From: a virus
Virus record (IMG/VR): IMGVR_UViG_3300021399_000007
Location: 5,874 to 69,873 of that record
Length of the DNA: 64,000 bases
Strand: one strand, 5' to 3'
How positions within the stretch are numbered: the stretch's first letter is position 1; each line of letters opens with the position of its first letter. Positions 1 to 64,000 of this stretch are shown in pieces. The notes below the pieces were generated by a model that was given only the letters and a program-made list of their open reading frames with translations, was not told the DNA's origin and did not search any database. The translations under genes were made by a program, and so were the position numbers.

Positions 1-2
1 TA

Positions 3-1147
3 AGTCATTGGCTTGAAGTAGTAACTTGGAGAAAACAACATTACGAAAAAATTTTATTTAAAGAAGGTATATTTGAAGAAAGAAATGCAGGTTTTCAAAC
101 TAGTGGAGCACCTTCAGCAGACGGAACAAAAGTTTCTTGGCAACCTTCTGAAGAATTTTTTACTCATACTGAAGTTGAAATAAATAAAATTAGAGATTTA
201 TTTAAAACTATTGTTTGTCTTTGTCCTGGGTTAACTATTAATTTAAACAATAATGGAAAAGAAGAGCATTACATTTCAACAAAAGGACTTCATGATCTTA
301 TTGATGAAGCAGTCGGTGATAAAGAAATAATTAATAATAGATTTAGTGTAATATATAATGAACCTCATGGAAAAAATAAATTAGATATTGCATTAACATA
401 TACATCTAACTATTCTTCAACTATTGTTCCTTATGTTAATACTGGCCTAACAGAATCTGGGCCTCATATTACTCAGATTAAAACTATTATTACAAAAGAA
501 TTTAATAAATTCTTTAAAGAAAAGAAATGGTTGAAAGAAAAAGATACTAATTTAACTGGTGATGATATTCAAGAGGGAATGTATGTGGTATTTAATATTA
601 CTGCTCCTAATGTTGGATATGATGCACAGGTCAAAAGTAGAATTACAAAAATTGATATGACGCCATTTACTTCTGCTTTAAGCACAAATCTTGAAATATG
701 GCTAAATAACAATGAAAAAGAAATAAAAAGTATTTTTGAAAAGGCAGTTGCCGCGCGTAAAGCACGAGACGCCGCAAAGAAAGCAAGAGACAAGGCAAGA
801 GAGCAAAATAAAAAGAAACAGAAAGCTCTTAAATTTGATAGTAAACTTGCTGATTGCAATTCAAAGGATAGAAGTAAGTGTGAAATTTATATTACTGAGG
901 GAGATAGTGCATCTGGTAATTTAAAACTTGCTCGTGATAATGAAACACAGGCGGTTATGCCAGTTAGAGGTAAAATTTTAAATACTCAGAAAGCTACTTT
1001 TGCACAAATCCAAAAAAATGCAGAAATTATGACAATGTGCGATGCGTTTTTTGGACCTGGAGATTGGTCTATTGATCCTAAAACTCTCAAGGTAACATAT
1101 CATCAAGTAAGATATGGAAAAATTATTATCATGTCTGATGCCGACGT
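3..1147 (+). CDS. Type II DNA topoisomerase large (ATPase/TOPRIM) subunit, GyrB / T4 gp39-like, exon 1 (5' end lies outside the window)
   Basis: Open frame from the window start. TOPRIM motifs EGDSA and PVRGKILN are present. Homology to GyrB (IIIMSDADV...) stops abruptly at 1147 and resumes at 2205. Confidence 0.8.
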
Positions 1148-2204
1148 CAGTAACACGGCGTATGAAAGACTTTTCGCTTAATCAGGCGGGTAAAAATTTT
1201 TGGTCAACTTTGTATTATGTGATATGTACATTTTTCATATAATATGAAGGAGAAAAGAATTTTTGCTAACGGGGAATCCTAAACCAAATGGCATGGAAAT
1301 CCCGTGGGAAACAAATATTAATTCATTCTCTTTCAATAAATCAATGAAGGAGAATAAAAATGATAGGAATTTATAAAATTACAGAAAGAAATAATCCAAC
1401 AAATTTTTATGTTGGTCAATCAAATGATATAGATAGAAGATTTAAAGAGCATATTTATAAAACATCAAAACAATCACGTATTCCTTTTGATGATTAGATA
1501 ACTAATAAAGGAAAAGATGCTTTTTTATTTGAAGTATTAGAAGTATGTTCTATAGATGAATTAAATGATAAAGAAAAATATTGGATAAATAAATTAAACG
1601 CTATAAAATCTGGCAATAAAAATGAAGGTGGATTAACAGATGTCATAGGCAGTCACAATCCAAAAGCAAAATTAACAGAAGAAGATGTGATTCGAATTAG
1701 ACAAGCTTATGCCAACCATGAGCGCCAAAAAGATGTATATAAAGAATTTGAAAACAAAATTTCTTTTGGTTATTTTCAAAATCTTTGGCAAGGCAGATCT
1801 TGGTCACATGTTATGTCAGAAGTCTTTACGGAAGCGAATAAACAATATTATATTTATCAAAATTCACAGGGTAGTAATGGAGTTTCCGCTCAATTTACTG
1901 ATGAAGAAGTAATTCAACTTCGACATAGATATGTAAATGAAACTGCCAAAAAAATTTATGAAGATTATAAAGATCGAGTATCCTATCAAACATTTCAAGC
2001 TATGCTTTGGGGAAGAAGTTACTCAACGCTTCCTATTTATAAAAAGAAAGAAAAGAAATGGATTAATATTTGAACCTGTATCGACTATTCCCTTTGCCTT
2101 CTGGGCGGGGAAGTAGGACTGCTATTGATACGCAGTTCGAAATGGTCTCCTCTCAATAGAGAGTAAAAGATAGTCAGTGCTTATGGAAACATAAGAATAA
2201 CACG
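1148..2204 (+). mobile_element. Group I (IA-like) self-splicing intron interrupting the topoisomerase gene
   Basis: The exon reading DADV|DGAHI is restored by joining 1147 to 2205. The 5' exon ends in T and the intron ends in G. A T4 td-like core is present (CTAACGGGGAATCC ... GGAAATCCCGTGGG P3/P4/P6-like; GGACTGC...TAGTC P7-like; GNRA hairpin CTTATGGAAACATAAG P9-like). It contains a homing endonuclease ORF. Confidence 0.65.
1369..2073 (+). CDS. Intron-encoded GIY-YIG homing endonuclease (contains one in-frame TAG at ~1495)
   Basis: N-terminal GIYKITE...YVGQS...RFKEH...E..YWI GIY-YIG motifs. The frame continues through TAG into track ORF 1687..2073. Confidence 0.7.
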
Positions 2205-2613
2205 CGATGGAGCACATATTAAAAATCTTTTTTATACATTTATATGGAATTTTTGTCCAGATTTAATTAAAGATGGTTATGTATATGCGGGCGTGCCACC
2301 TCTTTATAAAATCACTCTCGCCGCAAATAAAGGATATAAATATCTTAAAAATGATGAAGCATTAGCTGAATATCAAAAAGAAAACAAAGGAAAGAAATAT
2401 CAAGTTGGACGCATGAAAGGACTCGGTGAGATGAACGTCGAAGAGACGGAAGAAACACTTACAGATCCTAATAATAGAATTATTAAACAAATTAATGTTG
2501 AAGATATTGTGGCAGCTGATAAACTTTTCAATGATTTAATGGGGAACGCAGTTATCCCACGTAAACGTTATATTAAAGAACACAGTTCCGAGGCAACTTA
2601 TAATGCAGAATAA
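2205..2613 (+). CDS. Topoisomerase II large subunit, exon 2 (C-terminal part)
   Basis: DGAHIKNLFYTF...GVPPLYKI...GLGEMN matches the GyrB C-terminal region. It is in frame with track ORF 2293..2613, with no stop back to 2205. Confidence 0.75.
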
Positions 2614-2990
2614 TCGTTTAATTCAAATGAATCAATGGGGTTCATATATCTATGTTGGAAAATATAAAAAAGGTATTTATAGAAATTGGGGAGATTATGC
2701 AGAAGATTTAAATCCTCAAAGTATAGAATAGATTATGAAAAAGTTATATTACTTTGAAGAAAATTTAGAAGCATTATAGGAGGATTTAAATAAAATAAAA
2801 TAAATGAGAAATAATTAGCAAAAATTAATAGATATTATGTTCGAAATTGCATTAATGATTCATAACCATCCATATTTCCAAGATAAAAATAATGAAAAAA
2901 TATGTGAATGGATTAGAGATCAACTAAAACAATGCGGTTTTGAAACTACACCTCTTGGCAGCAGTTGGGGAGTATTAAAGGAGATTAAAA

Positions 2991-5333
2991 ATGCAAAATG
3001 ATTTAACAAAAGAATTAGGTACAAATTTTATAGAATATGCTGTTGCAGTTAATACTGATCGAGCTATCCCTAATGCGAAAGATGGATTAAAGCCTGTTGC
3101 AAAACGAATCTTATGGGGCGCAGAAGATAAAACTAAATGTGTATCAAGTAAACCACATGTAAAAGCAGCTAAACTTGTTGGTGATATTATGGGTACTTAT
3201 CATCCGCATGGTGATAGCTCAATTTATGGTGCTCTTGTACGCCTTTCTCAAAATTGGGTTATGCGTTATCCATTAATTGATTTCCATGGTAATAATGGTA
3301 ATATTATTGGAGATGGCCCTGCACATATGCGTTATACTGAATGTAGATTAAGTAAACTTGCAGAAGATGGGCTTCTTCAAGGAACAAAGAAAAATAATGT
3401 TGATTTCATTCCTAACTATGATGAAACAACAGAGGAGCCAGTATCTCTTCCAAGTATTTTCCCTAATTTACTTTGTAATCCTAATAGCGGTATTGGTGTA
3501 GCTATGGCTTGCTCCTGGGCACCACATAATCTTGGTGAAGTAGCTGCGGCAATTAACCAATATTTATCTGGAGAAGAACCCATGTTGCCTGGTCCAGATT
3601 TTCCAACAGGTGGAATTATTATTAATCAAAAAGAAATTCCTGCAATTATGCGAACTGGACATGGTAGCGTAAAAGTTCGTGGTAAGTTTGAAATTGATAA
3701 GCAAAAAATTATTTTTACAGAAATTCCTTATGGAACATCTGTTGAAGGATTGATGACTGAAATTGGCGAAGTTTCAGATGCAAAGGAAATTGAAGGCATT
3801 GATAATATTCGTGATGAGTCTAATAAAAAAGGTGTTAGAATTGTCATTGAATGCGATAAAGGTATCAATCCTGCAAGTATTGTAAATAAACTTTTTGCAA
3901 AAACAAATTTACAAAGTTCATTTAGCTATAATCAGGTTGCTCTTGTCGATAAAGTGCCAACTGAATTAAATCTTAAAGATTGTATTAAAATCTATGTTGA
4001 CCATAATATTGATTGCATAACAAGAGAAACTAAATTTGATTTAGATAAGGCCATTGATAGACTTGAAATTGTTAATGGTTTACTGCGGGCACTTGAGGAT
4101 ATTGACAACATCATAGCGCTGATTAAAGGCTCCGAAAATGCAATTGCCGCAAAAGAAGCATTAATTAAGAAATATCAGTTCACAGAAAATCAAGCTAAAG
4201 CAATTTTAGCTATGAGACTTTCTTCTCTTGCAAAACTTGAAAAAGTTGAATTAGAGAAAGAAGCCGAAGATTTAAAAAATAAAATTTTTATGCTTAATCA
4301 GATTTTAGATAGTCGAGATGAGCAAATCGGAATTCTTAAAGTGCGACTTCAAGGACTAGTAAATAAATACGGTGACGCTCGTCGTACTGAACTAACTAAT
4401 ATTGAAGTAAAACCAGAAGATAAAATTATTGAGGAAGTTACTCCAGAAGATTGTGTTGTAATTCTTTCTCAAACTGGAGATATTAAACGTATACCTAAAA
4501 ATAGCTTTAAGGTACAACGCAAAAATGGGAAAGGCGTTAAGACAAAAGATGATGTAATTATGTCTACCATCTCTACTAATACTATTGATAATCTTCTTCT
4601 CTTTACTAAAAAAGGAAAAATGTTTAAAATTATCGTAGATGAAGTACCAGTTGGAACAAATGTATCAAAAGGCGTCCATGTTGGAACTTTAATTAATATG
4701 GATCAAGATGATGAAGTGATTGCTATCACTTCTTTGGCAAGAAGTAATACTGCAAAATATGTAGTATTCTTTACTAAACAAGGTTTGATGAAAAAAACTC
4801 TTCTTGATGAATATACAAAAGTGAAACGTAGTACAGGAATTGCCGCCATTAAATTAAACGATGGTGATTCTATTGCCAATGTAGAATTTATGAACGAAGA
4901 AGATATTCTTATTATTACTAAAAATGGAATGTCTATTCATTTTGAAAGCAAAAATGTTAATCCTATTGGTAGAGTTGCGGCAGGCGTTAAAACTATAAAA
5001 TTAGATGACAATGATGAGGTTGTTGTGGGACTTCCAATTCATTCAGACAATGATACTGTTGCTATTTTTTCTACAAAAGGATATGGTAAAAAGACTTCTA
5101 TTAAAGAATTTACAGTTCAGGGTAGAGGCGGAAAAGGTTTGGTAATTTATCGACCAAGTGCGGTATATGGTGAAATTGTAGGTGCGGCAGTTGTATCAGA
5201 TAAAGACGCCATTCTTCTTTCAGGCCAGCCTAATTCTATATGCATTGCCGCAACTGATTTACCATTATTAACTAGAACTAGTTTTGGTAATATCATGATA
5301 AAATCTAATATTTCATCGGTGGTAAAAATATGA
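2991..5333 (+). CDS. Type II DNA topoisomerase subunit A (GyrA/ParC / T4 gp52-like)
   Basis: 780 aa. N-terminal GyrA signature with the catalytic Tyr in AHMRYTE, plus a C-terminal beta-pinwheel-like repeat region. Confidence 0.85.
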   Translation: MQNDLTKELGTNFIEYAVAVNTDRAIPNAKDGLKPVAKRILWGAEDKTKCVSSKPHVKAAKLVGDIMGTYHPHGDSSIYGALVRLSQNWVMRYPLIDFHGNNGNIIGDGPAHMRYTECRLSKLAEDGLLQGTKKNNVDFIPNYDETTEEPVSLPSIFPNLLCNPNSGIGVAMACSWAPHNLGEVAAAINQYLSGEEPMLPGPDFPTGGIIINQKEIPAIMRTGHGSVKVRGKFEIDKQKIIFTEIPYGTSVEGLMTEIGEVSDAKEIEGIDNIRDESNKKGVRIVIECDKGINPASIVNKLFAKTNLQSSFSYNQVALVDKVPTELNLKDCIKIYVDHNIDCITRETKFDLDKAIDRLEIVNGLLRALEDIDNIIALIKGSENAIAAKEALIKKYQFTENQAKAILAMRLSSLAKLEKVELEKEAEDLKNKIFMLNQILDSRDEQIGILKVRLQGLVNKYGDARRTELTNIEVKPEDKIIEEVTPEDCVVILSQTGDIKRIPKNSFKVQRKNGKGVKTKDDVIMSTISTNTIDNLLLFTKKGKMFKIIVDEVPVGTNVSKGVHVGTLINMDQDDEVIAITSLARSNTAKYVVFFTKQGLMKKTLLDEYTKVKRSTGIAAIKLNDGDSIANVEFMNEEDILIITKNGMSIHFESKNVNPIGRVAAGVKTIKLDDNDEVVVGLPIHSDNDTVAIFSTKGYGKKTSIKEFTVQGRGGKGLVIYRPSAVYGEIVGAAVVSDKDAILLSGQPNSICIAATDLPLLTRTSFGNIMIKSNISSVVKI

Positions 5334-5566: not shown

Positions 5567-5722
5567 ATAAATTAAATTGTCCTAACTGCGGAGTGCCAAT
5601 CTTCGCAGATAATTATAAAACTTAGTGATGTAAAAAAATAATATTAAATTAATTAGAATATCAATATAAACAATTAGACACTTTAACTATAGATGATTTA
5701 ATAATATAATGGGTGATTTAAT

Positions 5723-7660
5723 ATGACAATGCGTGGAATAATAGATATGCTTAATTATCATACTACATTATATGATAAAGGTAAAAGTGTATGGTCTGAT
5801 AAAGAATGGGATGAATTATATTTTAAACTTCAAAAATTAGAAAAAGAAACTGGTATTATTTATCCAGATTCACCAACTCAAAAAGTTTATTTTGAAAAAG
5901 TTTCTGAATTAAAAAAAGTTAAACATAATCATCCAATGTTGTCTCTTGATAAAACAAAAGATATAGAAGATATCAAATCTTTTATAAAAGGACATGATTG
6001 GGTGGCCATGGCAAAAATGGACGGATTAACTTGTTCATTACATTATGTTGATGGAAAACTGGTTTCCGCAGAGACAAGAGGAAATGGTATAGAAGGAGAA
6101 GATATTACTCATAATGCTTTAATAATTTCATCTATCCCTAATCAAATTAATTATAAAAAAGAATTAATTATTGATGGAGAAATTATTTGTACTTACAAAA
6201 ATTTTGAAAATTTTAACACTGAGTATAAAAATCCACGAAATTTTGCGAGTGGCAGTATTAGACTACTTGATTCAAAAGAATGTGTAAAAAGAAAATTAGA
6301 TTTCATTGCATGGGATGTAATCAAAGGGTTTAATAAAGAGACTTTGACAGAAAATCTTATTGAATTACGGCAGATTGGTTTTACAACAGTTCCATTAACA
6401 ATTAAAAATTTAATAACTCCAGATATTAATTCTGCAATAAATTTTTTAAAGGAACATTGTGAATTAAAGTCATATCCTATTGATGGGATTGTATTTAAAT
6501 ATGATAATGTTAAAGAGTATGAGGCGGCTGGCCGCACAGATCATCATTTTAAGGGCGGCTTAGCGTATAAGTTCTATGATGAAACTTATGAAACTCATTT
6601 AAAATATATCCAATGGACAATGGGAAGAACTGGTGTTCTTACTCCAGTAGCAGTATTTGATCCTATTGATATTGATGGTTCAATAGTAGAAAGAGCAAGT
6701 TTACATAATTTAAGTGTAATGGAAAATATTTTAGGTATTCCTTTTGAAAAACAAAAATTACAGGTTTTTAAAGCAAATATGATTGTTCCGCAAATTTATA
6801 GTGCAGAAAAACCAAAAGAAAAACCTAGTAGTCCTATTATTCCATTAATAGAAAAATGTCCTATTTGCGGTGAAGATGTAGAAATTATTAACAATAATGG
6901 TGTAAAAATTATTGTATGTACTAATCCCTCATGCCAGGGGAAATTTATTAATATACTTGAGCATTTTTGTGGGAAAAAGGGTCTTGATATTAAAGGATTA
7001 TCTAAAGCTACTTTTCAAAAGTTAATTGATTGGGGATGGCTTGAAAATCTTGAAGGAGTTTTTAATCTTAATCAATATAGAAATGAATGGATTAAAAAGC
7101 CTGGTTTTGGAATAACTTCTGTAGATAAAATCTTAAAATCAATAGAAGAGCATAGACATACAACACTTGATGCCTTTATATCTGCGATTGGTATCCCCCT
7201 TATAGGGCGGGCAGTAGCAAAAGATTTAATTAATTATTTTGAAACTTATGAAGATTTTCGTAATGCAATTGATGATGATAAATATGATTTTTCCATATTA
7301 GATAATTTTGGAGAAGAAATGAATAAAAGTATTAAAAATTTTGATTATGCGGAAGCTGACAGAATTTCTAAACTTTTAATTTTTGAAACTCCTGTTGTTA
7401 ACAACGTTCAAATAAATAATAGTCTTACAGGAAAAACTATAGTTATTACGGGAAAACTTACTACATTTAAAAATAGAGCTGAATTAAAAGCTGTTATTGA
7501 ATCTCATGGTGGAAAGGTATCAGATTCTATTTCTGGCAAGACTGATTTATTAATTAACAATGATGTAAATAGCACATCATCTAAAAACAAAGCTGCGAAG
7601 GCACGCAATATACCTATTGTTTCAGAACTAGATTTTATAAAGCAATATATTGAAAACTAA
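5723..7660 (+). CDS. ligA: NAD+-dependent DNA ligase (LigA-type)
   Basis: KMDGLT adenylation motif, a Cys4 zinc finger (CPICGE...CTNPSCQG), HhH region and a C-terminal BRCT-like domain. 645 aa. Confidence 0.85.
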   Translation: MTMRGIIDMLNYHTTLYDKGKSVWSDKEWDELYFKLQKLEKETGIIYPDSPTQKVYFEKVSELKKVKHNHPMLSLDKTKDIEDIKSFIKGHDWVAMAKMDGLTCSLHYVDGKLVSAETRGNGIEGEDITHNALIISSIPNQINYKKELIIDGEIICTYKNFENFNTEYKNPRNFASGSIRLLDSKECVKRKLDFIAWDVIKGFNKETLTENLIELRQIGFTTVPLTIKNLITPDINSAINFLKEHCELKSYPIDGIVFKYDNVKEYEAAGRTDHHFKGGLAYKFYDETYETHLKYIQWTMGRTGVLTPVAVFDPIDIDGSIVERASLHNLSVMENILGIPFEKQKLQVFKANMIVPQIYSAEKPKEKPSSPIIPLIEKCPICGEDVEIINNNGVKIIVCTNPSCQGKFINILEHFCGKKGLDIKGLSKATFQKLIDWGWLENLEGVFNLNQYRNEWIKKPGFGITSVDKILKSIEEHRHTTLDAFISAIGIPLIGRAVAKDLINYFETYEDFRNAIDDDKYDFSILDNFGEEMNKSIKNFDYAEADRISKLLIFETPVVNNVQINNSLTGKTIVITGKLTTFKNRAELKAVIESHGGKVSDSISGKTDLLINNDVNSTSSKNKAAKARNIPIVSELDFIKQYIEN

Positions 7661-8169: not shown

Positions 8170-8231
8170 TCTTAATTATATTGTGAGGGTTAGATAAAAT
8201 TTATCTAACCCTCTTTTATATTGGAGAAAAA

Positions 8232-8822
8232 ATGTTATTTATAATATTAAGTTTTATTTTTTTAATATTTGGTTTAATTCTTTTTTACAAAGCCAATCAA
8301 ATAAAAATTAATAAAAATGAATAGCAAGAAAAATATAAACAAATATTAAAAAATCAAATTACTCAATTAAAAATTGAGATTGATGCTTTAAAGCAATCTC
8401 AATTTAAAAAACAAAAAGAAATTGATTAGTAGTTAATACAATGGCAGGCTAATCGTAAAAAAGAAATTGAAGTATATATAGAAAGTCAAAAACAATTAGC
8501 TGATCAAACTGTAAATACAGTATATGAATCTGCCCAAAAGCAAATTTCAGATATTAATAATGATATTCAAAGTACTCGTAATATAGCATTGCAAGAAAAA
8601 AAATAGATACAAACTGAAATTAATAAATTAAAAGCCTCATTAAGTGCGGGTGTTGAAGCTCGTCTCCGCGAACAATAGAAAAAAGATAAAATTAATTTTT
8701 ATAAACTTTCTATTTCTGAAGCAGATTTAGCTGATGTAAAAATGCTATAGAATTTAAAATCTTCTTTTCATAAACCTGTTGTTTTAAGTAAACTTATATG
8801 GACTCAATATTTCCAAAAACAA
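8232..8822 (+). CDS. Membrane-anchored coiled-coil protein with 6 in-frame TAG codons (possibly fused to the downstream endonuclease frame)
   Basis: ATG at 8232, an N-terminal hydrophobic helix, and a Q/K-rich coiled coil. TAGs include a tandem TAGTAG. The same frame continues into 8823 with no TAA or TGA. Confidence 0.4.
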
Positions 8823-55083: not shown

Positions 55084-55255
55084 GGCTCTACATGAGCCTC
55101 TTTTTTATGCGCGGGGCGTTGACATTTACATCAACGTATTCAAAAGTTAAAAGTTGGCGATTTTGATTGTTAAAAAAATAACTTTTAAAAAAGTGTTGAC
55201 AAAAGATCAGACATTTGCTATACTTAAATCATCAAAGGAAAGGAGATTAAAACAA

Positions 55256-55422: not shown

Positions 55423-55585
55423 TCCTCATCTTTTTTTATGCGCGGCGCGCTGGTGGCCGCACCAGCGCGTTTTTCCATTATACCATACCCATCGGGTTTT
55501 GTCAATTGACATTTTGCACAAATTTTAATGCTAAAAATATCCTAAAATTCGTCATTCTTTCAAAAGTTAAAAATCGGTAGATTTC

Positions 55586-55690
55586 TTGTTAAAAATTTAA
55601 CAATCGACTAAAAGTGAAAAATCGGCAAAGTTCTTGTTAAACTTTTAACAATCTACCTACCACTCCTTGTTAAATTCTTAACAAGGGAAA
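55586..55690. promoter_or_regulatory. Array of three tandem palindromic operator-like sites (TTGTTAAA-N4-TTTAACAA) upstream of the 55745 promoter
   Basis: TTCTTGTTAAAAATTTAACAATCG, TTCTTGTTAAACTTTTAACAATCT and CCTTGTTAAATTCTTAACAAGGG, spaced about 45 and 33 bp apart. A perfect palindrome TGTCAATTGACA sits at ~55500. Confidence 0.5.
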
Positions 55691-55803
55691 AATTAAAAAT
55701 CAGCGGTTTTGACTTTGTTAAAAAAATAACTTTTAAAAAGGGGTTGACAACCGGAGTAATAAGGCTTATAATAAGGGTACAAACAAGGAAGGGGGACAAC
55801 CTA

Positions 55804-56265
55804 ATGACTACCAACACCGCACTCCACATCAATCTGATTGACCGCTACAACGCAGTTGCTTATACCCATGAGTATGTATGGGGCTTCACCTACAAAAAAA
55901 ATGTCTATATGACAATCACCGACGCAACTGTGATGCCGTTCGTTACCTGCCTTGACAAGGCAAGCCGTGGTGCTGGATATGCACTTCGCTTCTGCCCCAA
56001 CACTCAGCAGAAAGTGGCCCTGCTTCCATATGCGACCCTCCTTTGCTCTGAAGCTTACTTCAATGAAGTAGTAGCCGACAGCAAGTACAATAAAGGCGAG
56101 ATTTTTGAAAAAATGGTCACCGAACATTTTGGACAGACCTGGGAAAAGGATAATGTTCCCTTTACTGAAGATGGTGATATCACAGTCGATGGTACTGCAT
56201 ATCAAATCAAGTTTCAGAAAGCCACCTTCTGTAACGAAAAGAGCATAGCCAACCTTGAAAAATAA
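55804..56265 (+). CDS. hypothetical accessory protein
   Basis: Promoter GTTGACAACCGGAGTAATAAGGCTTATAAT. RBS AAGGAAGGGGG. The track ORF starts earlier at 55744, inside the promoter. Confidence 0.5.
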   Translation: MTTNTALHINLIDRYNAVAYTHEYVWGFTYKKNVYMTITDATVMPFVTCLDKASRGAGYALRFCPNTQQKVALLPYATLLCSEAYFNEVVADSKYNKGEIFEKMVTEHFGQTWEKDNVPFTEDGDITVDGTAYQIKFQKATFCNEKSIANLEK

Positions 56266-56362
56266 GGTTGGCTATATAGCCCGGGCGCTTGAAAAAAAAT
56301 TTCATATTGACATTTTAAAAAAACTATTGTATAATGTATATAGAAAGTGAGGGAAGAACAAA

Positions 56363-56623
56363 ATGAAAACTTTTATATGTGCTTTTTTCTTGACTATTGC
56401 AGGAATCATCGGAACATGGGAATCTAAATATTCTAGACCCGTAATCTGCACATACTACGACCCCTGCACTAACATTTCCACTTTCACAGACAATAGCGGG
56501 AATGATTGGGAATGGGAAAATGGAAATGATGAGGTTTTTGAAATCGGAAAGTCCTATACTCTTATTATGGATGATAATCATTCTTCTTCTATTTATGACG
56601 ACCTCATTAAAAAAATAAAATAA
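56363..56623 (+). CDS. small secreted/membrane-anchored protein (N-terminal signal-like helix)
   Basis: Promoter TTGACATTTTAAAAAAACTATTGTATAAT. Hydrophobic N-terminus MKTFICAFFLTIAGIIG. Confidence 0.45.
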   Translation: MKTFICAFFLTIAGIIGTWESKYSRPVICTYYDPCTNISTFTDNSGNDWEWENGNDEVFEIGKSYTLIMDDNHSSSIYDDLIKKIK

Positions 56624-56698
56624 AAAATAAAAAACCTATTGACAAATTAAAAAAGAAAGCTTATAATAGATTTATCAAAAGAAAGGAAGAAAAAAATT

Positions 56699-56929
56699 AT
56701 GACGAACGTATCCTATGACATCTACCGCAACAATCAGAAAGTAAAAAATGTAACTACCTATGCCGAAGCGGTTGCTTCTGTTAAAGAGCTGGGCGGGCGC
56801 GGGACTTTCAAGACTGTTTACACTAGCTTCAACCCCGAAGACACCGCAGAAAAGCGTGAATATGCTCATTCTCACGCTCAGAAAGTACATGAAGCGCTGA
56901 AGCGTAAAGCAGGGGTTAAGAAACATTAA
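56699..56929 (+). CDS. hypothetical small protein
   Basis: Promoter TTGACAAATTAAAAAAGAAAGCTTATAAT. RBS AAGGAAG. Confidence 0.45.
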   Translation: MTNVSYDIYRNNQKVKNVTTYAEAVASVKELGGRGTFKTVYTSFNPEDTAEKREYAHSHAQKVHEALKRKAGVKKH

Positions 56930-56976
56930 CCCCTGCACCCCCACAAATAAGAGTATAATAGAAAGGAAGTAAAAAA

Positions 56977-57198
56977 ATGAAAGTATCTATTAACTATTCA
57001 ATTCCTGTTTCAGCGGTTATTGTTTTTGATGAAATTTTTCGTTGTTCTGAACTGACTGACAGCTCTTATCCCCTGCAGAGATACATTGATAAAGCTGAAG
57101 AACTTATGCATATGTACGGTTTTGAATGGGCAGATATCATTGATGATGATGACGGTACTGTGATTGCTCAAATTGAAAGAGAGGACGATGATGAATGA
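56977..57198 (+). CDS. hypothetical small acidic protein
   Basis: RBS GAAAGGAAG. Co-transcribed with 56699. Terminator GACCGAGGTTTACATGACCTCGGTC. Confidence 0.4.
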   Translation: MKVSINYSIPVSAVIVFDEIFRCSELTDSSYPLQRYIDKAEELMHMYGFEWADIIDDDDGTVIAQIEREDDDE

Positions 57199-57394
57199 TA
57201 CTAATGGTATTGTTGATGATGACAGCGGCCTTCCTTATAGTTTTACTGAATGATGATGGCCCAAATAGACCGAGGTTTACATGACCTCGGTCATTTTTCG
57301 CCCGGGCCGCATGTTAAAAAAATAACTAACAAAGACCGCTTGACATTCTTCTATTGTTTTGATATAATCATTATCAGAAAGGGGATGTAACATA

Positions 57395-57886
57395 ATGAAA
57401 TTTTTAAATGAAGATTTACTTATTTCCTTGGTAGATGATTTTCTTAAGCCTTTTGGTCTTGATTCAGATTTTGATTCCGATTTTTCTTATGACCCTGACG
57501 ATGAGAGAGTTTATTTTTCAATCGCAGTTTCTGAAAGAGCAGATAGACTTTTCAAACAATATGTGCTTTCACATTTCCATTTTAAAATTTCCAACATTTT
57601 CATGATTTCTCTTTTGCATGAGGTTGGACATGCTTTCACCCTTGGAAATTTTTCTAAAATGGAAATCAAAACTGACCACTTTGAAAAAGAAACCATCGAA
57701 GAAATGCTTGATGCGGATGACTCCGATGACATTTATTCTTTATATTTTGATTTGAAAATCGAAAAGGTTGCTACTGAATGGGCGGTCAACTACTACAAAG
57801 AAAACACCAAACGCTGCGAAGATTTTTATTCAAAGTTTGTAAATGCCCTTAGAACGGAATATAAAAGGCTGGGAGTGACTGAGTAA
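57395..57886 (+). CDS. Putative HExxH zinc metallopeptidase-like protein
   Basis: LLHEVGHAF motif. Promoter CTTGACATTCTTCTATTGTTTTGATATAAT. Confidence 0.45.
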   Translation: MKFLNEDLLISLVDDFLKPFGLDSDFDSDFSYDPDDERVYFSIAVSERADRLFKQYVLSHFHFKISNIFMISLLHEVGHAFTLGNFSKMEIKTDHFEKETIEEMLDADDSDDIYSLYFDLKIEKVATEWAVNYYKENTKRCEDFYSKFVNALRTEYKRLGVTE

Positions 57887-57998
57887 GTCACCCCTAACCG
57901 CCCGGGCAGCGAGATTGTTAAAAAAATAACTTTTAAAATGGTATTGACATTTGTTCCTTTGTGTGGTATAGTATAACCATGAAAGAGAGGTAAACAAA

Positions 57999-58340
57999 AT
58001 GGCTCGTAAAATTTTCTTCGCAAGAGATTGGGACAAAGTTGGTAGAAATTATTATGAAATTTATACCACTGTTTGTATGGGATATACTTTTACTGTTGGA
58101 AAAGGAATTGAAAGAGACCCGAACTTTTCTATCTTTTATGTAACTAATGATGGACAGCATGACCATTATGAAATCCTTAATGTTTACATTACTGCAGGCG
58201 ATACCATCGAAGATACACAGAAAGGCGTTCTTACTACTCTCAAAAGAGAAATGAAAAGAGTTATTCAAAGAGGGTTGACAACTCGTGTAAAAAGTGGTAT
58301 GCTTACTATAGAACAGATAGAAAGGTGGGTAACAAAATGA
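57999..58340 (+). CDS. hypothetical accessory protein
   Basis: Promoter TTGACATTTGTTCCTTTGTGTGGTATAGTAT. RBS AGAGAGG. Confidence 0.45.
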   Translation: MARKIFFARDWDKVGRNYYEIYTTVCMGYTFTVGKGIERDPNFSIFYVTNDGQHDHYEILNVYITAGDTIEDTQKGVLTTLKREMKRVIQRGLTTRVKSGMLTIEQIERWVTK

Positions 58341-58475
58341 CAAATTTAAAAGATTTTATGTTATTTCAAATAGGCTCCTATCAAGTTATGGGATTATTCA
58401 GTAAAAAAGCTGATACGAAACTCAAACGTATTTTACATTATTTGCCTGTATTGATTATTAAGAAAGGATAACAAA

Positions 58476-58721
58476 ATGTATAAACTCTATTCAAGAATAA
58501 GTGACCATGAAACAATCCTTGAACTGTGGGGCGCATCAACCAAACATCCTGATAGCGTGTTTTTCTTTTCAGAATTTGAACCAAGCCCATGGTTTGACAG
58601 AGCCGACCAAATTGTTCCTTGGCTTCTGGAGTGCGCAAGCAAGATGAACTGGCCTATCCATTCTTACGAACTGGCAAAATGGGCGTGCATGATTTACGAG
58701 TCATGGCGCGGTTGGAATTAA
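58476..58721 (+). CDS. hypothetical accessory protein
   Basis: RBS AAGGA. Same operon as 57999. Confidence 0.45.
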   Translation: MYKLYSRISDHETILELWGASTKHPDSVFFFSEFEPSPWFDRADQIVPWLLECASKMNWPIHSYELAKWACMIYESWRGWN

Positions 58722-58737
58722 TGAAAGGAGATACATC

Positions 58738-58869
58738 ATGCAGGAACTTTTCGATCTTTTCTATCTCTATGATTACATGGTTATGCACACTGTTGATGAA
58801 GAACATGAGGAATACATACACCTGCGTCGTTACGTTGCAAAGCTGATTGAGGGGTTGGGGGCTGAGTAA
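58738..58869 (+). CDS. small protein (43 aa)
   Basis: RBS AAAGGAG. Ends inside a terminator hairpin GGGGCTGAGTAAGTCCCC. Confidence 0.3.
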   Translation: MQELFDLFYLYDYMVMHTVDEEHEEYIHLRRYVAKLIEGLGAE

Positions 58870-59170
58870 GTCCCCACTAACTTTGCCCGGGCGGCCCGTC
58901 GATTTATACAAAAGGATCCATATTTTCAATTTGATTTTTGTGCAACATTACGTCTTTACAAATCAAGAAACCTTTGCTATAATCTAGTTACAAGGTGAGG
59001 GAAACAAAAAGCCCTCAAAACTCAAAAGGGTTAGACAACAAGGCGCGCTGAGTCTAGCTTTTGGATTGAAAGGAGACAAGCAAAATGAGAATGCCGAGAG
59101 ATTGGATTTAATCCCTTTGGCTGAGTAGGAATGCCACTGTATGATTTGTAAAAAATAAAAATAAAAAACC

Positions 59171-59400
59171 TCTTGACAAATAGGGCGACTTGTGGTATAA
59201 TCTAATCACAGGTTAAGAAAGGAGATAGATAAGCCCATGATGAAAATTAAGAAATGAGCGCTTAGACTTGGGCATGGAGCGCTATGACATAAATTAAAAG
59301 GACTTGTCCATGGTAGCGGTGGATTGGCCACCCACCGAACTACCGAAACTTAAAAAAATTTTTTTAAAAAAAGCTTGACAACTGAATAAGGAACTGATAT
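59171..59400 (+). repeat. Leader module copy A (promoter, mini-ORF MMKIKK, two conserved hairpins, second promoter) upstream of wHTH paralogue 59444
   Basis: Homologous to 62491..62760. Conserved segments are AGCGCTATGACATAAA and GGTGGATTGGCCACCCACCG. Hairpin 1 shows compensatory changes (GCGCT/AGCGC versus GCGTT/AACGC). Confidence 0.5.
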
Positions 59401-59443
59401 AATAAAATCATCAAAAAGATAAACAAATCATTTAAAAAAGGAG

Positions 59444-59824
59444 ATGTATACTATGACAAAACTTACCTACGCTATGGCTATCGACTTCGCAACCGCAATC
59501 ATCACCAATGGAACTGCTGATTTCAACGGCTTCTCCGCTGATGAGTACCTTGAGAAGCTGGAGTCCCTCAAGGCTTCCCTTGCAAGACGCAACGGAAGTG
59601 AGAGAAAACCCACCAAGACCCAGCAGGCAAATGAGGGTCTGAAAGAAGATATGTGGGCTTACGTTTCTGAGAATGGTGCAAAGCGTGCCAATGAGGTCGC
59701 TGAACACTTCGCTATCAGCGGTCAGAAGGCTTCGGCTCTGCTGAACGCACTGGTCAAGGAAGGTCGCCTTGACAAGTTCACCGAGAAGCGTGTGACCTAC
59801 TTCAGGGTTGCTGAGGGGATGTAA
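59444..59824 (+). CDS. KPTKTQ-motif winged-helix-like small protein, paralogue A
   Basis: Shares the KPTKTQ..N(D/E)G(F/L)K motif and a C-terminal wHTH-like segment with 62777 and 63774. Promoter CTTGACAACTGAATAAGGAACTGATATAAT. Confidence 0.5.
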   Translation: MYTMTKLTYAMAIDFATAIITNGTADFNGFSADEYLEKLESLKASLARRNGSERKPTKTQQANEGLKEDMWAYVSENGAKRANEVAEHFAISGQKASALLNALVKEGRLDKFTEKRVTYFRVAEGM

Positions 59825-59995
59825 TCCCCTCACCGCTACCCCCAAGCGTGCCGAATCGTGATTGAAATAAATCCGTAGATTGAGGACGCTTGGGGGCGCG
59901 CCCGGGTACTCGTTAAAAAAATAACTTTCAAAAAGGGATTGACATCTCAATAGAAAAGGATTATAATGTAATCACAAAAAGAAAGGAGACAAAAA

Positions 59996-60199
59996 ATGAT
60001 TGCAGTTTTAAGATGGACAGATGGTTTTGGCCATGACACTTATGTAAAGGCAATTTATCCTACTCTTGAACAAGCAAAACAGTATTTTTCAGAGGGGGAC
60101 CGTTGGGTAGAATTTAATTATGGACTTGTTGATTTTGATTGGTATGAAGCCAATGAGTTCAGAGAAATAAAACATAGAAAAAAGAAGAAAAAGACTTGA
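59996..60199 (+). CDS. hypothetical small protein
   Basis: Promoter ATTGACATCTCAATAGAAAAGGATTATAAT. RBS AAAGGAG. Confidence 0.4.
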   Translation: MIAVLRWTDGFGHDTYVKAIYPTLEQAKQYFSEGDRWVEFNYGLVDFDWYEANEFREIKHRKKKKKT

Positions 60200-60253
60200 C
60201 AAATCTTTTAAAGTATGTCATAATCAAATCATCAAAAAAAAGAGGTAAACACC

Positions 60254-60553
60254 ATGAAGATTAATTACAAAGAAGTCACCATTACCACCACTTGCCCCTT
60301 CTGCGGACATATTAACGAAGTAGCGGTCAACAAATCCGATTACTGGGAGTGGCAGAACGGCGCACTTGTTCAGGATGCGTTCCCCTATCTCACAGCTGAT
60401 GAGCGTGAGACACTTGTGAGTGGCATCTGCCCCGCTTGTTGGGACAGAATGTTCAGCTTTCCCAATGATGAGGAAGATGATGAACTTTTTGACGACTGCG
60501 ATTATGAAATGGGTTTTGATCCCTATCTTGGGTGTTTTTCAGATGACTGCTGA
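60254..60553 (+). CDS. small Zn-ribbon protein
   Basis: CPFCGH...CPACW. Promoter CTTGACAAATCTTTTAAAGTATGTCATAAT. Confidence 0.45.
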   Translation: MKINYKEVTITTTCPFCGHINEVAVNKSDYWEWQNGALVQDAFPYLTADERETLVSGICPACWDRMFSFPNDEEDDELFDDCDYEMGFDPYLGCFSDDC

Positions 60554-60874
60554 GGTCATCTGACCCACCCGGGCGCCCGTTAACAATTCTGTAACAAAAT
60601 TAATAAATTGTTAAATTGACAAAATAAAAAAGATTTATTATAATTGTTACAGAAAGAGAGGTAAAAAGCTATGAAGAACACTTGGAAAATGGAAACATCT
60701 AAGGATTTTACCGCATGGGATTTAAATTGCCGAAATGTAGTCCCCCACAAAAAGCATCACAATGAACTTGAAAAAAAATTAAAAAGAAAAAATCGTAGAA
60801 AAGTAAAAATGACGCTTGACATTCTTTTTAAGTGATGCTATAATACAATTACAAAAAGAAAGGGGAATAAAAAA

Positions 60875-61312
60875 ATGACGATTTGGTTTGACATGGATGG
60901 AACAATTGCTAATCTCTACGGAGTTCAAAACTGGCTTGACTATCTGATGGCAAGCGACCCCACCCCTTACGCAATCGCTAAACCGCTTCTGAGACTGAAC
61001 GCACTGGCAAGAGTTCTAAATAATCTTCAGCGCAAGGGTTACAAAGTCGGAGTCATCAGCTGGCTTGCTAAAAACAGCACCGCCGACTATGACGAAGCGG
61101 TCACCAAAGCAAAGATTGATTGGTTGACTAAACATCTTGCAAGCGTTACTTTCGATGAAATCAACATCGTAAGATACGGAACTCCAAAACATCTGTTCGC
61201 TACCTGCGAAGCCGACATTCTTTTCGATGATGAGGAAAAGAACCGCAACGAATGGACAGGAAAAGCGTTCGATGTGAATAACATTCTTGAAGTGCTGAAG
61301 GGACTGGATTAA
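60875..61312 (+). CDS. HAD-superfamily phosphatase, paralogue 2 (GC-richer codon usage than paralogue 1)
   Basis: WFDMDGTIAN and DILFDDEE motifs. Collinear with 53990..54430 at the protein level. Terminator GGACTGGATTAATCCAGTCC. Confidence 0.6.
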   Translation: MTIWFDMDGTIANLYGVQNWLDYLMASDPTPYAIAKPLLRLNALARVLNNLQRKGYKVGVISWLAKNSTADYDEAVTKAKIDWLTKHLASVTFDEINIVRYGTPKHLFATCEADILFDDEEKNRNEWTGKAFDVNNILEVLKGLD

Positions 61313-61419
61313 TCCAGTCCCAAATTTTTTGGCCCGGGCGCCCATTTTTTTCATTAAACCCCTTGACAAATCAAAGAATATCAATTATAATTGATTTATC
61401 AAAAGAAAGGAGCAAAAAA

Positions 61420-61791
61420 ATGAAAACTGCAAAATTATCTCTTTTAATATTATTTTTCCTCTTTGCTATTGTTATTATTTCATCCTCTGCGACTGCCGCC
61501 AAAAACGATTTAAAAATCATTAAAACTCTTTGCAAAAATAGACCATTTAAAGTGGTTTCCCACAAAGACTACAAAAAAATAACTCACAGGAAAAACAAAC
61601 CTTACATAATAGTTGTAAAAATCATTTCCCGCTCAAAAGGAAACTATGGTTTTACAAAAGAAGGATATTACATTTCCTATAACAAAAGAGTCAAAGTAGG
61701 AAAAAAGGTTACTAGTTACCTTATTTATAATCCAAAAAACAATAGTCATGATGATGTGCTATGGGTTGTAGATAATGGGAAATATAAATAA
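61420..61791 (+). CDS. small secreted protein (signal peptide)
   Basis: MKTAKLSLLILFFLFAIVIISSSATAA. RBS AAAGGAG. The track start at 61363 lies within the promoter CTTGACAAATCAAAGAATATCAATTATAAT. Confidence 0.45.
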   Translation: MKTAKLSLLILFFLFAIVIISSSATAAKNDLKIIKTLCKNRPFKVVSHKDYKKITHRKNKPYIIVVKIISRSKGNYGFTKEGYYISYNKRVKVGKKVTSYLIYNPKNNSHDDVLWVVDNGKYK

Positions 61792-61846
61792 AAAACATGT
61801 TGACTTTTTTCTTAATCAATGATATAATCTAATCAAGAAAGGAGAG

Positions 61847-62188
61847 ATGAACATGACAAACAAAGATAAACTGATTGAAAAAATCATGAGAGAATGTGAA
61901 CAGGAAGGCGAGCCTGTTACAAGAGAAGAAGCTGAAGAAATGGCGGAGATGGAAATCAAAGCCAATGGCATCAAGCGGTATGAACAGTCCGATAAACCGC
62001 GGAAGGCCACCAAAAAAGAGCGGAAGGTGGATACCACAAAGAAACGCCTGCTGATGGATTGCAAGGTGCTTCTTGAAGGTCTTGGCGCTGAGGTTCTCAA
62101 TGTGAAAACTGAGACCGAAGTCACTTTCAACTTTGAGGGCGAAGAGTATAGCCTGAAACTGGTCAAGCATCGCCCCAAGAAGGAATAA
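61847..62188 (+). CDS. hypothetical basic/acidic small protein
   Basis: Promoter GTTGACTTTTTTTCTTAATCAATGATATAAT. RBS AAGGAGAG. Terminator GGCAGAGGATTTTTCCTCTGTC. Confidence 0.45.
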   Translation: MNMTNKDKLIEKIMRECEQEGEPVTREEAEEMAEMEIKANGIKRYEQSDKPRKATKKERKVDTTKKRLLMDCKVLLEGLGAEVLNVKTETEVTFNFEGEEYSLKLVKHRPKKE

Positions 62189-62490
62189 AAACAAGGCAGA
62201 GGATTTTTCCTCTGTCTTTTCCAGCGGGGCGCGAGCCTTCGGTTCGCGCCGAAATTTCCATTGTACCACACCCCGCACTTTTTGTCAAGCAAAATCTGCA
62301 AAAAAACTACACAAAATTATATCCCAAAATTAGTGCAACATTCCGATGTTGACTTTCTAAAAAACTTATATTATAATATGTTTACAAGGTAAGGGAAGGG
62401 CAACACAATCGAGTAGGATGGTCGGCAGAGCCTAGCGCCTTCTGATTATTTGAATAGACAGATAGCCACTTCAAAAAAAATAAAAAAACT

Positions 62491-62760
62491 TGTTGACAAA
62501 TAAAAAATCTTATGTTATAATAAGTACATAAGATAAAGAAAGGATTGATACAGCTGATGAGACTTAGGATGTAAGCGTTGGGGCGCAAACGCTATGACAT
62601 AAAAGAGGCGCAGGGGTAGATACGCGGACGCGGACAGAGTGAGAAAGGCGGTGGAATTGGCCACCCACCGCTCCCCGAAAAGTTTTTAAAAAAAGCTTGA
62701 CAACTAAATGAGGAACTGTTATAATAAGCACATAAGAAAACAAAACACCACTTAATCAAG
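62491..62760 (+). repeat. Leader module copy B (promoter, mini-ORF MRLRM, two hairpins, second promoter) upstream of paralogue 62777
   Basis: See copy A at 59171..59400. P-b TTGACAAATAAAAAATCTTATGTTATAAT. P-c CTTGACAACTAAATGAGGAACTGTTATAAT. Confidence 0.5.
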
Positions 62761-62776
62761 AAAGGAAGTATCTACC

Positions 62777-63136
62777 ATGACGAAGAGAGAAATGTTCACC
62801 AAAATCCGCACTGCTGTTGCTAACGATGCTGAGATGGTCGCCTTCATTGACCACGAAATCGAGTTGCTGAACCGCAAGTCCGCAACCCCGAAGAAACCCA
62901 CCAAGACGCAGGTGGAAAACGATGGTTTCAAGGCTGAAATCCTTGAAACGTTGGCTCAGGTCGATGCGCCTGTGACCATCAAGGAACTGTGCGGTGCCTG
63001 TGAAGCTCTCGCAGGTCTTTCCAATCAGCGTGTGACTCACATGCTGACTGACCTCCGCAAGGATGGCAAGGTTGCTCGGTCCTATGTTAAGAAGGTTGCC
63101 TACTTCGCTCTTGGTTCTGAGGACGAGGTAGAGTAA
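62777..63136 (+). CDS. KPTKTQ-motif winged-helix-like small protein, paralogue B
   Basis: MTKREMFTKIRTAVANDAEMVAFIDHEIELL...KPTKTQVENDGFKAEI is near-identical in its N-terminal half to 63774. Confidence 0.5.
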   Translation: MTKREMFTKIRTAVANDAEMVAFIDHEIELLNRKSATPKKPTKTQVENDGFKAEILETLAQVDAPVTIKELCGACEALAGLSNQRVTHMLTDLRKDGKVARSYVKKVAYFALGSEDEVE

Positions 63137-63773
63137 GAAAAAGGGTTTGCGGTTATCCCTTAAAACCGCATTTTATGGGGGATTTATAGTGAAGCCTGAG
63201 GTGACAAGTAGTTGCGTAATAGCCCTTGTGTAATTCCTGGGAAGATGTGGTGCAAGTCCCATTCCCCCAACTCTACTGACAATATTCGTTCCTCCTTTCT
63301 TTGAAAAGACACCATCTTTTTAGATGGTGTCTTTTTCATTTGGCGCCACGCGACCGGTCGGCCGCGGGGCGAAACTTCCATTATATCATACTCTGGGCTT
63401 TTTGTCAAGTGAAAATCTGCACAAACATCTCGCCGCAAAATTCCCAAAATTAGTGCAATATTCCGACATTGACTTTTTCAAAAAAATTTATTATAATATA
63501 TTTACAAGGTAAGGGAAGTCAACCGCTAAAAAAACTTAAAAAGTTAAAAAAAGTTCTTGACAAAACAAAAGCCTTGTGCTATAATAATCTTGTTGGGTGG
63601 TAGAAGCAACATAAAATAAAAGATACCCGTGGAGTTGATGGTACGATAGTCTCCGAAAAAAAACCATCAAAAAATTAAAAAATCTATTGACAAATCAAAA
63701 ATCTTATGTTAAAATAAGTACATAAGATAAAACAAAAACAAATCAATCAATCAAAAGAAAGAGGTGTTTATTA

Positions 63774-64000
63774 TGACAAAGAAAGAAATGTTCTCCAAAA
63801 TCCGTACTGCTGTTGCTGATAACGCTGAAATGGTTGCTTTCATCGACCATGAGATTGAACTGCTGGAGAAGAAGTCCAGTTCCCCGAAAAAGCCGACCAA
63901 GACTCAGCTTGAGAATGACGGCTTCAAGGCGGAGATTGTCGCCTACCTCACGGATGCTGATGCTCCGAAGAACATCAAGGAACTTCAGGCCGAGGTCGCT
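63774..64000 (+). CDS. KPTKTQ-motif protein, paralogue C (3' end outside the window)
   Basis: MTKKEMFSKIRTAVADNAEMVAFIDHEIELLEKKSSSPKKPTKTQLENDGFKAEI. Promoter ATTGACAAATCAAAAATCTTATGTTAAAAT. Confidence 0.45.

Follow-up and report, generated by a model that had tools for sequence, protein, structure and literature searches.

A stretch of viral DNA of 64,000 nucleotides, positions 5,874 to 69,873 of the IMG/VR record IMGVR_UViG_3300021399_000007 (hereafter the window), contains many genes with in-frame TAG codons, which raises the question of whether TAG is read as an amino acid in this virus and, if so, as which one. The window represents about 45% of a roughly 140-kb SPbeta-like tailed phage of Bacillota, with a large terminase subunit (TerL) of the YonF type, from rumen or gut metagenomes. 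We conclude that TAG is, with near certainty, a sense codon in this phage and that, judging from sequence comparison with its relatives, it very probably stands mainly or wholly for glutamate (Glu, E); an original prediction, made from the DNA alone, had favoured glutamine (Gln, Q).

TAG within genes

When open reading frames (ORFs) of at least 100 amino acids were called with TAG as sense, 55 were found in the window, and 23 of them contain TAG: 82 such codons lie after the first ATG, and 88 are present if the ORFs are counted from stop to stop. ORFs end at TAA (41) or TGA (14) and never at TAG, which holds also for the 32 that are free of TAG. TAA and TGA are the sole terminators, and within the TAG-containing genes of the window we found no in-frame TAA, no in-frame TGA and no frameshift that would need to be bypassed. 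Two of the 55 ORFs carry a TAG separated from the stop by 0-3 codons and are ambiguous as to its use as a terminator: ORF 34935-36071 ends ...SI-TAG-TAA (34938-34943), so that its protein changes by one residue whether the TAG is read or stops, and in ORF 22054-22860 a TAG stands 4 codons ahead of the stop. Tandem TAGTAG occurs at 8427-8432 and 9351-9356, and a TAG-ATG junction at 9777-9782. Some TAGs of the stop-to-stop ORFs (15866-16054, 29347, 22072) probably lie 5' of the true start.

Several Pfam domains run across the TAGs, namely NRDD (2-562 of 562 positions) with its ATP-cone, Fer4_12 (NrdG), DHH together with DHHA1 and RecJ_OB, and GIY-YIG in two genes. Read through its eight TAGs, TerL has 578 residues and is equal in length to 100+ homologues. 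Many TAGs are kept as TAG in independent assemblies of relatives of 60-96% identity, and this conservation excludes pseudogenes and sequencing errors.

The original prediction had argued for amber recoding from in-frame TAG with homology on both sides (in TerL, NrdD, NrdG, the DHH gene and the GIY-YIG genes) and from TAA and TGA as the only stops, neither of which interrupts a gene; the observations above bear this out, with all 55 ORFs ending in TAA or TGA and none read through either. The TerL fragment coordinates that it named (47701, 47254 and 46696) are exact TAG codons, and the TAG-ATG junction and the tandem TAGTAG that it described are present. For NrdD it was right that domains span a TAG, but this codon (29458) lies inside the ATP-cone and not between the cone and the catalytic body. 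Re-calling genes with TAG as sense, which it had suggested as a check, raises coding coverage from 84% under the standard code to 93%, but in this AT-rich DNA reading TAA as sense gives 93% as well, and coding density was therefore dropped as a discriminating statistic.

The residue aligned at TAG

In the protein databases, TerL homologues carry mostly E at the eight TAG positions, and then Q. For the homologue in locus L002 (10001-11737; related loci are numbered here with the prefix L), all nine mismatches between the protein and a table-11 translation of its DNA are TAG codons written as Q, and the database Q of the DHH homologues (L283-L287) is likewise TAG in the DNA. The Q recorded at TAG sites is a product of translation with code 15, with no Gln codon behind it. 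Because the homologous proteins had already been translated with code 15, the protein-level reading of homologues at TAG sites was dropped as misleading, and the analysis was moved to the level of codons.

Codon pairs were collected by aligning the window ORFs to 79 TerL-centred loci, and the majority residue at each site was taken from an all-against-all comparison of 206 loci. At ≥90% identity, TAG lies opposite GAA 303 times, GAG 70 times, GAT 10 times, CAA 7 times and CAG 3 times (E 373, D 10, Q 10); at 70-90% identity it lies opposite E 958, D 121 and Q 99 times, and at 40-70% identity opposite E 460 and Q 97 times. TAG swaps with GAA and GAG among relatives as a synonymous codon would, and the GAA:GAG ratio at TAG-aligned sites, 303:70, matches ordinary Glu codon usage. 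When a likelihood was calculated from the substitution frequencies of the same alignments, E came first by >580 log units in every identity bin.

Taken site by site, the majority sense residue is E at 38 of the 56 window TAG sites and Q at five. Each close relative has an E majority at 70-85% of its TAG sites, and the totals over all loci at TAG sites are E 1657, Q 248, K 175 and D 161. The distant relatives L154-L156 provide an internal control, in that the identical pipeline returns a Q majority for them and is therefore not biased towards E. The "probable Gln" of the original prediction does not survive this comparison, in which Glu is the first residue aligned at TAG, by a wide margin.

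TerL permits the comparison to be extended to codon composition and to phages with the standard code. Among TerL orthologues, each additional TAG is matched by the loss of about one Glu codon (slope -0.91, r -0.83, p 2e-12), and the number of Gln codons stays nearly level (slope -0.12). In the TerL of four cultured standard-code phages, the TAG columns hold E in 59/181 cases (33%, against a background of 7%) and Q in 11/181 (6%). Ten TAG columns read EEEE or EEEx in these outgroup sequences; the window sites 47701 and 46402 are EEEE, and 47119 is EEME. The TAG columns include an invariant EE pair that follows a hydrophobic strand and looks like a Walker B motif; a PDB sequence search with TerL, made for this assignment, gave no matches. 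In the window itself, the TerL gene (46339-48081, minus strand) has TAG at 48034, 48007, 47701, 47254, 47119, 46696, 46498 and 46402, and relatives have E as the aligned sense residue at each of the eight, for example in 69 cases at 46402 and in 67 at 47119.

The tRNA of close relatives and alternative readings

As the original prediction had reported, the window holds no suppressor tRNA: ARAGORN and Rfam (E ≤ 1) gave no tRNA of any kind in the 64 kb, and there is none within 9 kb past the right end. A tRNA with the anticodon CUA, tRNA(CUA), is found in a tRNA array of seven related loci (L270, L271, L272, L277-279 and L282), which in relatives lies about 25-30 kb beyond the right end (64000 side) of the window; L271 is a contig whose TerL is 95% identical to that of the window. 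The array was located by stepping along the record IMGVR_UViG_3300021400_001206 (139,781 bp), and then with the adjacent DUF2828 gene as an anchor in ENA contigs. The TerL of this record is 92% identical to P0002, which is itself 96% identical to the window TerL, and its array comprises 19 tRNA genes, including tRNA(CUA), tRNA-Glu(UUC) and tRNA-Gln(UUG). With the exception of L272, the seven loci have tRNA(CUA) directly after tRNA-Glu(UUC) or tRNA-Glu(CUC). A search of IMG/VR with a strict pattern, a Glu-type D-arm plus CTCTAA, returned four contigs only and missed the closest clade.

Eight distinct tRNA(CUA) sequences from the clade in which TAG aligns with Glu form a normal cloverleaf, with compensatory changes in 17 of 20 stem pairs. 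G10-C25, U35 and A37 are invariant among them, U11-A24 and A73 are each present in seven, and U1-A72 is present in none. Their ends are C1-G72 or G1-U72, the D-loop has 11 nt with extra bases, and the variable loop has 4 nt in L218, L267, L266, L282 and L271 and 5 nt in L270, L272 and L277. In sets of phage tRNAs, A73 is nearly invariant in tRNA-Glu, as is G73 in tRNA-Gln. The tRNA(CUA) of L218, L267 and L282 is a near-canonical tRNA-Glu with a CUA anticodon, and its nearest neighbours are tRNA-Glu. Covariance models made from the phage tRNA-Glu and tRNA-Gln sets, which are weakly specific, favour Glu for all eight sequences by 1.6-22 bits, whereas for the tRNA(CUA) of the distant relatives L153 and L203 they prefer Gln, by 18-22 bits. 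These features suggest that the isotype of the clade's tRNA(CUA) is Glu-like.

The identity elements of the enzymes concerned allow a mechanism to be proposed. Glutamyl-tRNA synthetase (GluRS) recognizes U35, A37, U11-A24 and an augmented D-helix, and also U34 and the lack of a nucleotide 47 (PMC9976931). The bacterial amidotransferase GatCAB has U1-A72 as its determinant and G1-C72 and an extra D-loop base, U20a, as antideterminants, and for glutaminyl-tRNA synthetase (GlnRS) the required elements are the pairs 1-72 and 3-70, G10 and the discriminator (PMC9976931; PMC2811023). We propose, giving the scheme about an even chance of being right, that tRNA(CUA) was derived from, or has converged on, tRNA-Glu and would be charged with Glu by the host GluRS. 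This would plausibly be a non-discriminating GluRS, which charges tRNA-Gln as well and so would not depend on position 36. Having no U1-A72 and extra D-loop bases, the tRNA would be a poor substrate for GatCAB, such that Glu would be retained, and with A73 and no U1-A72 it would be a poor substrate for GlnRS too. Early genes would be translated by the host code, and the TAG-containing late genes would be finished only once the phage tRNA is expressed.

The core replication genes contain no TAG against some 370 Glu codons, compared with a TAG share of 12% of all TAG plus Glu codons in the virion block; at the virion-block rate, the chance of finding no TAG in the replication genes is about 1e-20 (hand calculation). 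This placement fits the timing model that has been published for TAG-to-Gln phages, in which the host can read the early genes and the late ones depend on the phage tRNA (Borges et al., bioRxiv 10.1101/2021.08.26.457843).

A number of observations weigh against Glu and against the mechanism proposed for it. Relatives have a Q majority at a few window sites, for example 48828, 37979 and 38567, and in the plus-strand block the TAGs of relatives lie opposite window E 37 times, Q 18 times and K 12 times. The tRNA(CUA) is seen only in relatives, in a part of the genome outside that covered by the window. Under the covariance models unrelated isotypes score 60-65 bits, and sequence-only isotype hidden Markov models, whose leave-one-out accuracy for tRNA-Glu is 9/13, place the tRNA(CUA) of L270-L272 nearest to Cys, Trp or Gln; that of L270 has its D-stem, anticodon arm and T-arm in common with phage tRNA-Trp. 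Position 34 is C, replacing the modified U34 that is a major determinant for GluRS, and CUA tRNAs are classically glutaminylated in E. coli (PMC9976931). Lastly, the split between early and late genes is imperfect: NrdD, NrdG, the DHH gene and homing endonucleases contain TAG, and five virion genes (39935-44253) are free of it, so that the enrichment in late genes is gene-specific and not uniform.

Of the other explanations, the one that survives best, which we nevertheless regard as unlikely, is that TAG is ambiguous, with a tRNA(CUA) that would be glutamylated and then amidated in part by GatCAB, or charged in part by GlnRS, to give a mixture of Glu and Gln tolerated mainly where both residues fit. 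Everywhere, Q ranks second or third among the residues that lie opposite TAG, and it reaches about one quarter in DHH and other plus-strand genes; together with the Q-majority window sites and the sister lineages that have a Gln-type tRNA(CUA), this speaks for a mixture, and the Q share of 10-25% in some genes may reflect mixed Glu/Gln decoding. We note, however, that TAG occupies columns invariant for Glu in both ingroup and outgroups, that E:Q is 37:1 at ≥90% identity, and that the Gln codon count shows no trade-off against TAG; moreover, CAG is one transition away from TAG, so that some Q partners would be expected by mutation alone.

Rather less probable still is the standard phage code 15, in which TAG means Gln, as in crAss-like phages, Lak phages and phAss-1. 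E is favoured over Q by a large margin in every test, whether by alignment, composition or outgroups, and the tRNA(CUA) of the clade, with A73 and no U1-A72, is unlike phage tRNA-Gln and the distant Gln-type suppressors. These results have to be set against the facts that code 15 is the sole amber reassignment reported in phages and is assumed for the similar 136-kb phAss-1 group, that CUA tRNAs are good GlnRS substrates in E. coli, and that a Q minority does exist at TAG sites.

We attach a negligible probability to pseudogenes, assembly or sequencing artefacts, or low-level natural readthrough with no dedicated tRNA, since the lack of a tRNA or release-factor gene in the window, which would agree with them, is outweighed by 82-88 in-frame TAGs against no in-frame TAA, TGA or frameshift, by TAG positions kept across independent assemblies from many samples and present in essential genes (TerL, portal), and by the conserved tRNA(CUA) of relatives. 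Pyrrolysine or another non-standard residue at TAG is equally hard to credit: the 'Pyl' label given by ARAGORN is applied to any CUA anticodon, the tRNA folds as an ordinary cloverleaf in which the D-loop is large, the anticodon stem has 5 bp and the anticodon loop 7 nt, TAG swaps specifically with Glu codons, and no pyl genes were present among the called genes around the tRNA arrays.

Turning to more distant relatives (57-69% protein identity), we found Gln-type tRNA(CUA) genes at L153:8896-8971 (= L184:20668-20743) and L203:21187-21262, with U1/A1-A72-type ends, G73 and a Gln-type D-arm (GCC...GGC). The Q-majority loci L154-L156 and the loci with a Gln-type tRNA are different contigs, and the latter have too few alignable TAG sites. 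Together these data suggest that sister lineages of the same phage family read TAG as Gln. For the system as a whole, we think it probable that this SPbeta-like Bacillota lineage of ~140 kb uses TAG for Glu, with TAA and TGA as stops, by way of a glutamylated tRNA(CUA) that would escape the Gln pathway, and that sister lineages with a Gln-type tRNA(CUA) read TAG as Gln. If this is true, the same stop codon was captured twice, for two amino acids, within one virus family; no current table contains the code, in which TAG is Glu and only TAA and TGA are stops, and any pipeline that applies table 15 to recoded phages would mistranslate the clade.

Three observations concern the tRNA arrays themselves. 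Just 5' of the array lies a gene of the sigma-70 family with regions r1_2 to r4 (L272:1-381, L277:1005-1895, L278:1496-2386, L282:1-137), which may regulate transcription in the middle or late phase and perhaps the expression of tRNA(CUA). Opal-suppressor-like tRNA genes with the anticodon UCA, labelled 'SeC' by ARAGORN, occur at L217:10668-10739 (= L269:2186-2257) and L187:3655-3730, and in L217/L269 the UCA tRNA shares the array with tRNA(CUA). Next to tRNA-Leu(CAA), a tRNA-like gene of 98 nt (L026:4052-4149; L051:5350-5447, minus strand), absent from the window, has an 8-nt anticodon loop and a long extra region; ARAGORN assigns it the four-base anticodons gaag and aaag, and it could be quadruplet-decoding or contain an intron.

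Known codes and the genes of the window

The stop-codon recoding known from phages is confined to TAG-to-Gln and TGA-to-Trp, with TGA-to-Gly in addition if the host has that assignment too. Among eukaryotes, the nuclear codes of NCBI tables 30 (Peritrich) and 31 (Blastocrithidia) have UAG and UAA as Glu, via tRNA-Glu-like tRNAs that match the stops. The window phage resembles these in that UAG would mean Glu, here on comparative grounds; it differs in that tables 30 and 31 belong to cellular eukaryotes in which UAA is reassigned too, whereas here TAA ends 41 of the 55 ORFs and the virus is one of a bacterium presumed to use the standard code.

Borges et al. (bioRxiv 10.1101/2021.08.26.457843) reported only TAG-to-Gln and TGA-to-Trp in phages with a code unlike that of the host, and Cook et al. 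and a survey of jumbo phages treat all TAG recoding as table 15. The window phage shares with the code 15 phages (crAss-like, Lak, Agate and Garnet among others; Borges et al., bioRxiv 10.1101/2021.08.26.457843; Peters et al., PMC9523058) the in-frame TAG in essential and late genes, the stops TAA and TGA, a phage-encoded tRNA(CUA), here that of close relatives, the absence of the recoded codon from early or replication genes, and a host presumed to use the standard code. It differs from them in the residue with which TAG aligns, which is Glu and not Gln (E 373 to Q 10 at ≥90% identity; E 59 to Q 11 in the outgroups), and in its suppressor tRNA, which has Glu-type features: where a Gln-type suppressor has U1-A72, G73 and a short D-loop, the eight tRNA(CUA) have no U1-A72, A73 in seven and a D-loop of 11 nt. 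The system is thus a member of the class of amber-recoded phages that lacks the defining feature of code 15.

Two further groups are close to the window phage. The first, phAss-1 and the proposed 'Phassvirus' (Babkin et al. 2023, PMC10607447), has siphophage-like gut-virome genomes of 133-138 kb related to Enterococcus phage EF1, with TAG in about 40 ORFs including those for TerL, portal, tape measure and NrdG, and with 28-36 tRNA genes including a tRNA-Sup-CTA and no dedicated synthetase; Gln was assigned there from tRNAscan-SE and TerL alignments, and table 15 was used. The second comprises the SPbeta-like phages (Bacillus SPbeta/phi3T, the Lactococcus 949/AM group, Geobacillus E3 and Enterococcus EF1), which have a YonF-homologous TerL, genomes of ~130-145 kb, matches to Pfam YonG_N, YonD_N, YonB, YorF and YorH, and Pol III alpha, DnaB and gyrase-like genes in common with the window phage; unlike it, the cultured members use the standard code, with TerL genes free of in-frame TAG. 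In a full-text literature search, whose coverage of the literature is incomplete, no phage or bacterium was described as reading TAG as Glu.

If TAG is Glu, the assignment is new among the natural codes of viruses that infect bacteria. The amino acid of a captured stop codon would then not be fixed by the affinity of GlnRS for CUA anticodons, and it would become testable how a CUA tRNA stays on the Glu side of the GluRS/GatCAB/GlnRS system. There are practical consequences as well. Public table-15 entries of these phage proteins would be wrong at 1-2% of residues, and table-15 translation, verified for the collection searched, would store as Gln up to ~12% of the Glu positions in the virion proteins of the clade, including conserved acidic residues. 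Such mistranslation affects homology searches, structure prediction and charge estimates. As Glu and Gln differ by 0.984 Da, the same as the shift caused by deamidation, peptides with a true Glu would either escape detection or be taken for deamidated Gln.

The window has a G+C content of 31%, and its genes fall into three blocks. Genes for replication and nucleotide metabolism occupy 1-34130 on the plus strand; convergent with them is the packaging and virion block on the minus strand (34299-50583); and small plus-strand genes fill 50660-64000, where TAG is scarce, with 4 in ORFs of at least 100 residues. Between the two convergent blocks is a strong hairpin at 34216-34344, most simply a bidirectional terminator, with weak sub-threshold Rfam matches (sraA, L20_leader).

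In the packaging and virion block, the first gene (49459-50583) has six TAGs, with E the commonest sense residue in relatives at four of them. A YonG-like gene (48072-49424), upstream of TerL and syntenic with a PF27269 YonG_N gene in L002, has six as well, with an E majority at five and the Q majority at 48828 already mentioned. The putative portal gene (44320-45948), so assigned because it adjoins TerL as do the portal genes of Geobacillus E3 and Brevibacillus Sundance, has TAGs at 45880, 45823 and 44416, the first of which is TAG in 31 relatives and E in 21. The five virion-module genes that are free of TAG (39935-44253) include YonD-like and YonB-like genes. Seven more (34299-39950) together hold 29 TAGs: two in 34299-34919, nine in 34935-36071, the last of them directly before TAA, one in 36141-37166 (phrog_2729, virion structural), nine in 37191-37940, 5-6 in 37934-38575 (phrog_6123), two in 38583-39590 and one in 39594-39950. 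At sites in this group, relatives have E 18 times at 38288, 16 times at 38060 and 16 times at 36945. The heaviest use of TAG that we saw is in a close relative (L207:4370-13015 and 13314-17786; L162:1-6531), with 63 TAGs in a tape-measure-like gene (2882 residues) and 31 in the next gene (1491 residues); this tape-measure gene was met on the record IMGVR_UViG_3300021400_001206 before its tRNA array.

The replication block contains the following TAG-free genes, all on the plus strand and assigned with Pfam: gyrB-like (3-1181), gyrA/topoIV (2979-5333), NAD-ligase (5717-7660), AAA_24 (11775-12833), DnaB (13446-14990), PARG with a microbial-type poly(ADP-ribose) glycohydrolase domain (17561-18388), a UvrD-like helicase (20899-22023), Pol III alpha of 1318 residues (24764-28720) and guanylate kinase (28713-29288). 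With PARG, the two-subunit gyrase/topoisomerase IV-like pair (3-5333), Pol III alpha and the NAD-dependent ligase, the phage has a replication set that is unusually complete for its size.

Other plus-strand genes of this block do contain TAG. The gene for the anaerobic ribonucleotide reductase NrdD (29317-31647; Pfam NRDD 6e-149, plus ATP-cone) has its TAG at 29458-29460, which is TAG also in L283-L285 and aligns with E in PDB 8p23; the TAG at 29347 is the one noted above as probably 5' of the start. The activase gene nrdG (32207-32698; Pfam Fer4_12 4e-40) has TAGs at 32324 and 32558, and the former (CQNP-TAG-TWD) corresponds to GAA in L283 and to D in the PFL-activating enzyme 3c8f. The DHH/DHHA1/RecJ_OB phosphoesterase gene (18389-20257) has three: 18572 is kept as TAG in relatives, 19187 is GAA or TAG, and 19274 is GAT or AGT. 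A GIY-YIG endonuclease gene (8187-9149), whose product has an N-terminal part with a transmembrane segment and coiled coil, carries eight TAGs, including the tandem at 8427-8432; E is the commonest residue in relatives at 8430, 8676, 8748 and 9051, and K, Q or D at 8427, 8604 and 9096. In the ORF with the TAG-ATG junction (9195-10256), site 9777 is E in 20 relatives and TAG in seven, and the tandem TAG at 9351-9356 may lie 5' of the start. A GIY-YIG homing endonuclease gene between the gyrB-like and gyrA-like genes (1348-2073) has one TAG, at 1495, and a Zn-finger/DUF5889-like endonuclease gene (22054-22860), to which no relatives aligned, has TAGs at 22195, 22279 and 22846.

The TerL is a YonF (SPbeta-like) terminase whose cultured relatives all come from Bacillota hosts (Bacillus, Lactococcus, Enterococcus, Geobacillus and Clostridium). 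Related contigs of 120-150 kb number in the hundreds across IMG/VR, ENA and Logan assemblies. Among GenBank phage records the closest is a 12-kb fragment from human faeces, without annotation and of ~70% DNA identity. One hint as to the host is a DHH homologue, P0351 (62% identity), deposited as part of a metagenome-assembled genome of Candidatus Onthovivens sp. (Bacilli), which may be a binned phage contig or a prophage. The lineage is rich in homing endonucleases, those of the window being at 1348-2073, 8187-9149 and 22054-22860. In more than ten relatives (L028, L030, L048, L062, L065-L068 and others), the TerL match extends over 2.0-2.6 kb in place of 1.7 kb, pointing to an insertion in TerL (an intron, an intein or an endonuclease), and in L283 the AAA_24 gene is interrupted by a LAGLIDADG ORF.

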